From Oceanivirga miroungae (GTDB lineage Bacteria > Fusobacteriota > Fusobacteriia > Fusobacteriales > Leptotrichiaceae), in contig NZ_CABWIB010000001.1 in NCBI RefSeq assembly GCF_902505095.1, positions 570,688-634,687 on the forward strand: a stretch of 64,000 nt of DNA. The letters are read 5' to 3'. Under the pieces are notes generated by a model. That model ran no database searches and was not told the DNA's origin. It saw only the letters and a program-made list of their open reading frames with translations. This document shows positions 20,924 through 22,474 of this stretch, one piece after another; the stretch's first letter is position 1, and each line of letters starts with the position of its first letter. A program made the translations under genes and the position numbers.

Positions 20924-21270
20924 AATACGAGATTAAAATAAAAAATATAATACTGTCAAATGATGACATATTAAATATGAAATTTTTGTTAAAAAAAGAT
21001 AGAAATGATGGTCTAGCAAATAATAATTCAAAAATACAAATAGAAATAAATGCTAGACAATTTTCAAATAATACTATAAAAAATTTAATTAGCTTAAAAG
21101 ATGAATACTTTAGTGTAGATTTAAATTATGAAAATATATCATACAACATAGATAAAATGTATATATATAATATCGAACAAGTTTTTGTTAATGGAGAAAT
21201 AAGCTTTAATATAGTACTTTATCAAAAATATATGACAAAAGATAAGGAGATAAAAGTAATTGAAAATTGA
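20908..21270 (+). CDS. hypothetical protein (120 aa)
   Basis: Overlaps both neighbours. No motif recognised. Confidence 0.5.
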   Translation: MVFTIKYEIKIKNIILSNDDILNMKFLLKKDRNDGLANNNSKIQIEINARQFSNNTIKNLISLKDEYFSVDLNYENISYNIDKMYIYNIEQVFVNGEISFNIVLYQKYMTKDKEIKVIEN

Positions 21271-22474
21271 AATAGATAATAATGAATTAAAAGACTATAC
21301 AATAGATAGATTTGATATAAGTTTTGATTTAAATAAGCATACAGAATTATCACTAATTTTAAGAATGGATAAAAAAAATTTTGATTTAGATAATAAAAGT
21401 ATAAAAGTGGATAATATATTTTATGGAAATATTTATGAATATAAAATGGCTGAATATGGATATGAGGGATTTTACATTGAGATAATGGCATACTCTTTAA
21501 CAAAAGAGTTGGATAGAAATTTAAAAACTAGGATATATCAAGATAAAGAATTTACATATATGAATATAATAAATCAAGTAATGGATGAATATAATATAAA
21601 ATATATTTGTAGCGAGAAATTAAAAAAGAAAATAAATAAAGTGTATTTTCAAGATAATATAACAGATTATGAATTTTTAAAAAGAATTCTAGCGGATATA
21701 AATGAAGCTATATTTGTATCATATAACGGATTAGTAGTTTTTGGAATAGATACATATGGTTATAGTGAAATAAGTGAGTATAAAGAAAAAAGAATAACAA
21801 ATAAAGGAGTAGAATACCTTGTTGAAAATAAAGTTATACTACAAGCTGATAGTATTGATAATTTGTTTGTTCTAAAGTCACATATATATATGCATAATCA
21901 AATTTTAAATTCAGATATACTTTTATCTAAAAAAAATATAGAAATAGAAAAAATAAGATCAAATGTAAAAGGACGATTTATTGAAGCAAAGGTAGTTGAC
22001 TTGATAGATGAAAATGAAGTAGCTAAAATGAAAGTTAGTTTTTTAATAGATGGCTTTTCTGATAAAAGTATAAATAAAAAAAGCATCTGCTTTTCAACGC
22101 CGTATAGTAAAATACATACAGGAATGTATATAACACCTGAAATTGGAGATAAGGTAGATGTATATTTTCCAAGTGATAATGAAGATGATATGAAAGTTGC
22201 TTTTTGTATAAATAATGATAAGAGTTCAATTTTTCTTAATAAAGAGTATAAAAACTTTTTAACAAATGACTTTTCTATGATTTTAGATAAAAAAGATTTT
22301 AAATTGATTCTAAATGATTTAAATATAAACATAAATAATAACTTAAACCTAGAAGTAAAAGAATTTACAAATATAAAATCAAATAATAAGCTAAATTTAA
22401 AATCGGATAAAGACATACAAATAAATACCATTAAAGACTTGGTAATAAACGCTACTAAAATACATAATAATTAA
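21260..22474 (+). CDS. VgrG-like / phage baseplate hub-spike protein (gp27-like N-terminus + gp5/gpV OB-fold), compact at 404 aa
   Basis: FQDNITDYEFLKRILADINEAIFVSYNG resembles the VgrG (Q..E.D..FL.RLL.EEGI.Y.F) block. KMKVSFLIDGFSDK...SICFSTPYSKIHTGMYITPEIGDKVDVYFPSDNEDD matches the (rV.V.f...s.WvRv.qp.aG...G..f.PriG.EV.V.F..GD.D.P) OB-fold signature. Confidence 0.55.
   Translation: MKIEIDNNELKDYTIDRFDISFDLNKHTELSLILRMDKKNFDLDNKSIKVDNIFYGNIYEYKMAEYGYEGFYIEIMAYSLTKELDRNLKTRIYQDKEFTYMNIINQVMDEYNIKYICSEKLKKKINKVYFQDNITDYEFLKRILADINEAIFVSYNGLVVFGIDTYGYSEISEYKEKRITNKGVEYLVENKVILQADSIDNLFVLKSHIYMHNQILNSDILLSKKNIEIEKIRSNVKGRFIEAKVVDLIDENEVAKMKVSFLIDGFSDKSINKKSICFSTPYSKIHTGMYITPEIGDKVDVYFPSDNEDDMKVAFCINNDKSSIFLNKEYKNFLTNDFSMILDKKDFKLILNDLNININNNLNLEVKEFTNIKSNNKLNLKSDKDIQINTIKDLVINATKIHNN

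Follow-up and report, generated by a model that had tools for sequence, protein, structure and literature searches.

This report concerns a six-gene cassette of Oceanivirga miroungae in which a short VgrG-like spike protein is encoded directly ahead of a large protein carrying a DUF4280 (PAAR-like) domain, and in which no sheath or tube could be detected. The cassette occupies positions 19336-26457 of the forward strand of the window, by which we mean the whole stretch of 64,000 nucleotides that was analysed (contig NZ_CABWIB010000001.1, positions 570,688 to 634,687); its genes are called A to F here, the spike gene D being the fourth. The spike protein had been singled out in an earlier reading made from the letters alone (the sequence-only reading), which missed the cassette around it, and it is this six-gene unit that is the real oddity of the locus. 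Sheath-less toxin delivery by VgrG together with PAAR_H2, another name for DUF4280, has been only speculated for Firmicutes (Zhang et al., 2021, PMC8651086; Lays et al., 2016, PMC5349215), and we lean, by a modest degree, toward the view that the cassette is a reduced version of such a system adapted to a double-membrane cell. Within that view, the most likely role of D and E is that of a spike-tip toxin carrier working in a sheath-less system.

Gene D (21260-22474, forward strand) was delimited from the list of open reading frames (ORFs), from profile matches and from the predicted fold. Its frame runs unbroken over 404 codons and opens with a TTG that lines up with Met1 of all orthologues (MKIxID...), and AAGGAG stands 11 nt upstream of this start. 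The product matches, at 100% identity, an O. miroungae protein recorded as hypothetical on a 1.34-Mb contig. The coordinates, the length of 404 aa and the 10-nt gap to the DUF4280 gene given by the sequence-only reading agree with this ORF and with the next ATG, that of gene E at 22485; the spacer after the stop of D, which ends at 22474, contains AAGGG. Along the protein, a gp27-like hub (about aa 1-235, 21260-21964) is followed by a putative gp5-type oligonucleotide/oligosaccharide-binding (OB) fold (about aa 239-318, 21974-22213) and by a short strand-rich tail (aa 321-404, 22220-22471) ending K-I-H-N-N, all on the forward strand. NCBIfam VgrG_rel (NF033848) matches aa 64-160 (E 2.5e-6, 26.1 bits against a cut-off of 275), TIGR01646 (vgr_GE) matches aa 243-321 (E 1.2e-6, 27.8 bits against 121.8), and PF04717, the OB fold, matches aa 242-307 (E 0.009, 16.8 bits against a gathering score of 23.8); D alone thus passes the cut-off of neither curated VgrG model, TIGR01646 or VgrG_rel. 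The two sequence blocks that had been held to be diagnostic and retained do fall inside these matches, QDNITDYEFLKRIL at aa 131-144 within that of VgrG_rel and PEIGDKVDVYFP at aa 293-304 within those of TIGR01646 and PF04717. Among the relatives, a Clostridium homologue scores above the thresholds of both PF05954 and PF04717 (28.8 bits for the latter), and PF05954 is also recorded for the orthologue P0017. A phmmer search of the PDB sequences returned a marginal match to the spike of the Anabaena thylakoid-anchored contractile injection system (tCIS), aa 286-399 of D aligning with the helix of 7b5h at E 0.35.

The weak sequence signal is settled by the predicted structure, on which, together with the profile matches, D is very probably a VgrG-like spike or hub protein of the gp27-gp5 superfamily. 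An AlphaFold2 (AF2) monomer model built on 15 homologues reached a predicted local distance difference test (pLDDT) score of 85-90 over aa 1-230, and its tail contains eight short strands between aa 330 and 403 at a pLDDT of about 50-60 in the monomer. [quoted passage not shown] The similarity to gp27, gp5 and VgrG folds on which the sequence-only reading depended was accordingly found, the eCIS spikes and VgrGs matching at E 4e-17 to 1e-13. Among the predicted viral structures of BFVD, phage hubs match D at E 5e-13 to 1e-8.

The length of D was the feature that first drew attention, the protein having been described as an unusually short, truncated spike that consists of only a hub and an OB fold. 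At E <= 1e-3 the family profile collects 3216 clusters at 50% identity (919 of them at E <= 1e-30, by HMMER), and the best 150 of these 3216 relatives, which are mostly end-to-end profile matches, have a median length of 480 aa, 83 falling between 450 and 499 aa. Full-length orthologues share 38-41% identity with D, and of the best 150 none but D and its close relatives, at 404-415 aa, combines full length with a size of at most 415 aa; three still shorter entries cover the profile only in part. D is the shortest full-length member within this set and carries a deletion of about 8 aa in its tail relative to the orthologues. The OB fold begins at residue 243 of D as against position 350 of the vgr_GE model, and since it begins so early, length has been saved mainly in the gp27-like hub, which is about 235 aa long. 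Judged by these alignments, the small size is a trait of the family and the clade rather than a truncation, Leptotrichiaceae being the shortest full-length branch; "unusually short" holds for the rank of D among the best 150 relatives, but shortness as such runs in the family, and D is no one-off. Nor is the protein reduced to hub and OB fold, as an 84-aa strand-rich tail remains, of which 18 residues are Asn and 13 Lys (the N/K-rich string pointed out earlier being aa 351-389). The extreme C-terminus is invariant in the close family (K400, I401, N403 and N404, or K-I-x-N-N), and this we infer to be a putative docking place for a PAAR-type tip. Distant homologues of 424 aa and 28% identity to D were also seen in four phage-like contigs (L004-L007, for example L005 10001-11275), where a choline-binding protein is their direct neighbour and the Baseplate_J and Mu gp48 genes lie several kb upstream of them, which is not the usual position of a hub.

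The proposed tip is carried by gene E (22485-25580, forward strand), which encodes 1031 aa. An N-terminal region of about 640 aa, including a K/E-rich stretch, precedes a DUF4280/PAAR-like domain (PF14107; aa 662-757, 24468-24755); after a linker, the protein closes with a TIGR02594/CHAP-like domain (about aa 935-1031, 25287-25577) that is degenerate. The DUF4280 match is clear, its 47.2 bits exceeding the gathering score of 26.3 (E 3.8e-12), and is the sole Pfam match above its gathering score in the whole cassette. The DUF4280 family is defined by four conserved metal-binding Cys (PMC5349215), and five Cys of the domain are invariant in six orthologues (C663, C670, C707, C715 and C744). At the C-terminus the orthologues of E match TIGR02594 at E 8e-15 to 1e-18 with 55-68 bits, just below the cut-off of 70.55, one of them also weakly matching CHAP, and all five compared carry the motifs TPWCASF and GHC[ST]FI. 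The copy in the window has departed from this pattern: it matches TIGR02594 only at E 0.027 (14.8 bits against 70.55), has an 18-aa deletion, and reads KNFNLFF for TPWCASF and YYIAFL for GHC[ST]FI, a degeneration seen in O. miroungae only. The DUF4280 protein starts 7-10 nt after D in all Leptotrichiaceae loci listed, and the preservation of this short junction in all seven orthologous loci supports the pairing of spike and cone suggested in the sequence-only reading. From what is known of the two families, from their adjacency and from their co-conservation, it is likely that D and E form a spike-tip pair.

The genes around D and E are tightly packed. A and B overlap by 8 nt, B and C by 16 nt and C and D by 11 nt, the remaining junctions overlapping or being at most 10 nt apart. 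The only terminator-like hairpin with a T-run found between 18800 and 26700 lies at 19157-19173 on the forward strand; it closes the upstream housekeeping unit and sets the 5′ boundary of the cassette, and the same scan found no such site inside the cassette. The GC content is 21.1% in the cassette, whereas the flanks, taken as 10 kb each way, have 25.6%. The neighbouring housekeeping genes encode ClpP, ClpX, Lon, HPRT and KsgA upstream and YfiH and SecA downstream. All six genes, in the same order and at 25-41% identity, recur in the seven Leptotrichiaceae loci listed, which come from at least three genera: O. salmonicida (L001/L002), two metagenome contigs (L003 and L009), an uncultured Sneathia (L011), Sneathia sanguinegens CCUG 41628T (L012) and a Leptotrichiaceae metagenome-assembled genome (L013). 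The genome scan was made with alignment A4, and the count of loci is a lower bound, that is, at least seven. Flanking genes are common only to L003 and L012, so that the seven loci represent six genomic contexts, and the neighbours with Pfam annotation (in L001, L003 and L009) are housekeeping genes. Pfam families of sheath, tube or baseplate proteins were found neither in the cassette nor among the annotated neighbours within about 10 kb in L001, L003 and L009. Beside the cassette no phage gene, integrase or repeat was seen, a search of 50,697 phage genomes by tblastn, with D and with an A-like protein as queries, returned nothing, and the IMG/VR scan gave no relative. In two of the seven loci individual genes are split, D into two ORFs in L013 (5257-6516), and in L009 both A (8039-9087, 246 and 103 aa) and E (11254-14279, 473 and 524 aa); this could reflect pseudogenisation, assembly error or, for E, natural two-gene versions.

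The four remaining genes, likewise on the forward strand, resisted annotation, as scans of A, B, C and F with Pfam, PHROGs, NCBIfam and PADLOC gave no meaningful match. A (19336-20409, 357 aa), B (20402-20923, 173 aa) and C (20908-21270, 120 aa) are soluble proteins lacking any conserved hydrophobic segment, with orthologues at 33-37% identity in six loci for A, 31-38% for B and 30-36% for C (n = 7). Profiles of the three found nothing useful among the PDB sequences, and in a test for tube-like domains their alignment to the D profile by hhalign reached a probability of at most 1.3%. An AF2 model of A from 20 sequences was uninformative (pLDDT 43), Foldseek returning nothing from the PDB below E 0.49. 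F (25516-26457, about 313 aa) has a signal peptide and a C-terminal beta-signal, L-T-L-S-Y-G-I-N-W, and all seven orthologues share an N-terminal hydrophobic leader and an alternating-hydrophobic end with Y-x-x-W, features by which it is probably an outer-membrane beta-barrel. We also considered F as a candidate immunity protein that would counter the hydrolase domain of E, a reading in keeping with its position directly downstream; this was judged less likely than a barrel on account of the conserved C-terminal beta-signal and a size of about 290 residues. C and F are confined to Leptotrichiaceae, and hmmsearch found no homologue of either in the Firmicutes loci, to which we now turn.

B lies directly 3′ of A in every case, and the pair has relatives outside Fusobacteriota. 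In hmmsearch the profile hidden Markov model (HMM) of A matches proteins of 411-428 aa in six Clostridium and Lachnospiraceae loci at E 1e-10 to 9e-18, and that of B matches the 231-236-aa product of the gene after the A-like gene at E 5e-9 to 4e-6. The adjacent pair is found in L008, L014, L016, L018, L020 and L030, with weaker matches of about 2e-3 in L027 (E 0.0026 for A); in L035 and L036 (1-21290) it was recognised from the gene order. These Firmicutes loci comprise 12-20 conserved genes including 2-5 VgrG-like paralogues, and they also carry immunity genes. Their first part runs from a PP2C/TPR membrane protein through the A-like (411-429 aa) and B-like genes, a protein of 876-903 aa and one of 258-264 aa to a VgrG-like gene, and their second part through a protein of about 200 aa, a further VgrG-like gene, a pentapeptide-repeat protein, a protein of about 172 aa and a DUF4280 gene to a giant fusion with an N-terminal VgrG. 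In the Lachnospiraceae versions, DnaJ, FHA proteins, a Ser/Thr kinase and PP2C are added upstream. The giant fusion of L014 (301-21281) is a VgrG-like-DUF6531-RHS protein of more than 2472 aa at 13866-21281, with two hydrophobic segments within aa 529-566, and is a VgrG-Rhs polymorphic toxin in a Gram-positive. The 876-903-aa protein shows phosphate motifs of the Hsp70/actin type by eye only (AIDFGTSNT, IIDCGGGTTD and LTGQSC); searched alone and as a family profile, the 876-aa member found nothing among the PDB sequences, and no profile confirms an Hsp70/actin nature. Sheath, tube and baseplate-wedge Pfam families were absent from the Clostridium and Lachnospiraceae loci. Judging from these profile matches, A and B tie the cassette to toxin-rich Firmicutes loci without a recognisable sheath. 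That bacteria lacking a T6SS, mostly Gram-positive, encode VgrG-like and DUF4280 proteins beside polymorphic toxins has been a puzzle since 2016 (PMC5349215; PMC8651086). A smaller arrangement was seen on the Clostridium butyricum megaplasmid pCBU1 (L034 12314-22052), where a VgrG-like protein annotated as "phage tail protein" is grouped with DUF1629, DUF4280, a 955-aa protein and a pentapeptide protein; the island also holds Imm30, an HNH polymorphic toxin lies nearby, and there are three such places in the record.

Set beside the known spike-based systems, the cassette resembles each of them in part. The eCIS spikes (Afp8, Pvc8, AlgoCIS Alg8 and the Anabaena tCIS protein All3320) are the best structural matches to D and have the order of gp27-like hub, gp5-type OB fold and short beta-helix that is predicted for D, with a PAAR-type tip as their cap. 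At 504-589 aa no classical spikes are shorter than these, yet D is shorter still by 100-185 aa, mainly in the hub, and shares only about 12% sequence identity with them. Unlike an eCIS, the operon of D has no sheath, tube, gp25/gp6/gp7 or AAA+ gene, the same being true of the seven orthologous loci, and its tip is a DUF4280 domain in the middle of a 1031-aa protein. The T6SS VgrG (TssI, represented by Pseudomonas aeruginosa VgrG1, 4mtk, and Salmonella VgrS, 9mlp) belongs to the same fold family, and the succession of a vgrG gene, a PAAR-like effector fusion and accessory genes is likewise reminiscent of T6SS; D differs, however, in falling far below the TIGR01646 cut-off, in its much shorter predicted beta-helix and in having no T6SS core genes nearby. 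The phylum Fusobacteriota is not known for T6SS. Francisella IglG and the T6SS of Bacteroidota have DUF4280 itself as their PAAR-like family (PMC5014421; PMC5349215). Phage hubs (P2 gpD, Mu gp44/gpP and T4 gp27) have the hub fold of D at a similar length of about 330-390 aa (E 1e-10 to 3e-4), but they differ in having the spike as a protein of its own, with no OB fold or tail fused to the hub, and in belonging to phage tail modules. The Firmicutes loci with Phage_GPD and PAAR_H2 encode proteins of 440-500 aa that align with D over its full length, and they share with the cassette the adjacency of DUF4280 and VgrG-like genes, A and B, and the want of recognised contractile-system genes; their cargo consists of polymorphic toxins. 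In contrast to these loci, the cassette belongs to a double-membrane host of the Fusobacteriota, has six genes, with C and the predicted outer-membrane barrel F added, and is devoid of the protein with Hsp70-like motifs, the 259-aa protein, the pentapeptide protein, PP2C/TPR, and FHA or kinase proteins.

A scenario for how such a cassette could work can be drawn from these comparisons. Genes A to F form a translationally coupled operon, whose core of A, B, VgrG-like and DUF4280 genes is common to it and the Firmicutes loci. D would form a trimer, by analogy with every solved relative, and the DUF4280 domain of E would cap the short C-terminal beta-structure of D. E would be the cargo, the orthologues ending in what appears to be a cell-wall hydrolase domain of the TIGR02594/CHAP type. 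A, B and C may serve as assembly or loading factors, and F may provide the outer-membrane anchor or exit that a two-membrane cell would need. Whether this is done without a classical contractile sheath is, in our estimate, close to evenly balanced, leaning if anything toward a sheath. More tentatively, and with the odds against it, the cassette could be the minimal form of a new class of machine, consisting of a VgrG-like trimer and a DUF4280 tip with no contractile sheath or tube; such a class would be widespread in Clostridia and Lachnospiraceae, where it would include the protein with Hsp70-like motifs and be controlled by FHA, kinase and PP2C proteins, would have moved into Leptotrichiaceae and would there have gained an outer-membrane barrel.

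Several observations weigh against a reduced sheath-less system. The cassette contains no inner-membrane component, no ATPase and no protein with Hsp70-like motifs, which makes autonomous export hard to picture. The genome was read within 64 kb of its 1.34 Mb, and sheath and tube genes may lie elsewhere in it. Moreover, A, B and C could themselves be very divergent sheath, tube or baseplate proteins, since P2 FI and FII are of sizes comparable to their 357, 173 and 120 aa. Modelling gave low confidence for the OB fold and tail of D (pLDDT 36-62, and 36-67 where the OB fold is taken by itself), as is expected when an intertwined trimer is modelled as a monomer. Lastly, E of the window is without the predicted catalytic Cys and His, and this local copy may be inactive or repurposed.

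Three competing explanations were weighed. One would regard the cassette as an orphan VgrG-PAAR effector island that supplies just a spike, a tip-effector and helpers, the firing being left to a T6SS or eCIS at another place in the chromosome, as is the case for the vgrG islands of Proteobacteria and Bacteroidota. Every experimentally characterised VgrG-PAAR pair is known to work in this manner; the best structural matches of D are indeed eCIS and T6SS spikes, the cassette has neither an ATPase nor an inner-membrane part, and Clostridia also carry small VgrG-like/DUF4280 islands apart from their large loci. Yet no sheath, tube or baseplate gene occurs within about 10 kb of any annotated locus, the genomes concerned measure 1.2-1.9 Mb (PMC5093955), Fusobacteria go unmentioned in the text of the eCIS survey, the partners A and B belong to Firmicutes loci lacking a recognisable sheath or tube, and D, at 27.8 against 121.8 bits, stays far under the T6SS VgrG cut-off, leaving this explanation unlikely. 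Another would see in the cassette the remnant of a prophage or tailocin, with D as a leftover hub like P2 gpD or Mu gp44, E as a tail lysin, and no cellular role. The fold that D has in common with phage hubs, the 424-aa homologues near Baseplate_J and Mu gp48 in phage-like contigs, the resemblance of a hydrolase fused to a tip protein to tail lysins, and the low GC content of the cassette (21.1% against 25.6% in the flanks) would all suit such an origin. What speaks against it is the lack of any other phage gene, integrase or repeat beside the cassette, the empty searches of the 50,697 phage genomes and of IMG/VR, and the survival of six intact genes, 25-41% identical, in six contexts and no fewer than three genera, which points to selection and not to decay; we regard a remnant as very improbable.

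The third explanation is local, holding that the cassette, by ancestry a module for toxin delivery, is decaying or repurposed in O. miroungae itself, with a dead effector, and either no longer functions or serves a purpose other than toxicity, adhesion for example. It draws on the 18-aa deletion in E, the replacement of both hydrolase motifs and the residual TIGR02594 match at E 0.027, on the standing of D as the shortest full-length member seen with its 8-aa tail deletion, and on the split genes of two other loci (D in L013, A and E in L009). On the other hand, all six ORFs are intact, including a frame of 1031 codons at 21% GC, and conservation extends to both the DUF4280 cysteines and the tip of D. 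Such local decay, which seems to us improbable, a little more so than an orphan island, is compatible with reduced sheath-less delivery for the family as a whole.

The interest of the cassette lies in its being a very small version of the VgrG/DUF4280 puzzle, with six genes in cultivable organisms that have 1.3-Mb genomes (Oceanivirga and Sneathia), and through its small size and the link by A and B to the large Firmicutes loci the puzzle becomes directly testable. If a sheath-less, spike-based route is real, it would amount to a new secretion principle, and it would be relevant to the urogenital pathogen Sneathia. Should a hidden contractile system be at work instead, D would be the smallest known spike and the system the first contractile one in Leptotrichiaceae. 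In the literature, outside subscription-only papers, no paper on the Leptotrichiaceae cassette or on the mechanism of the Firmicutes loci was found.

Elsewhere in the window, positions 2365-2430 and 32518-32598 hold a ribosomal-protein leader of the S4-Fusobacteriales kind (56 bits), which agrees with an origin from O. miroungae, and a single tRNA, and the GC content climbs to about 35% beyond 58 kb.

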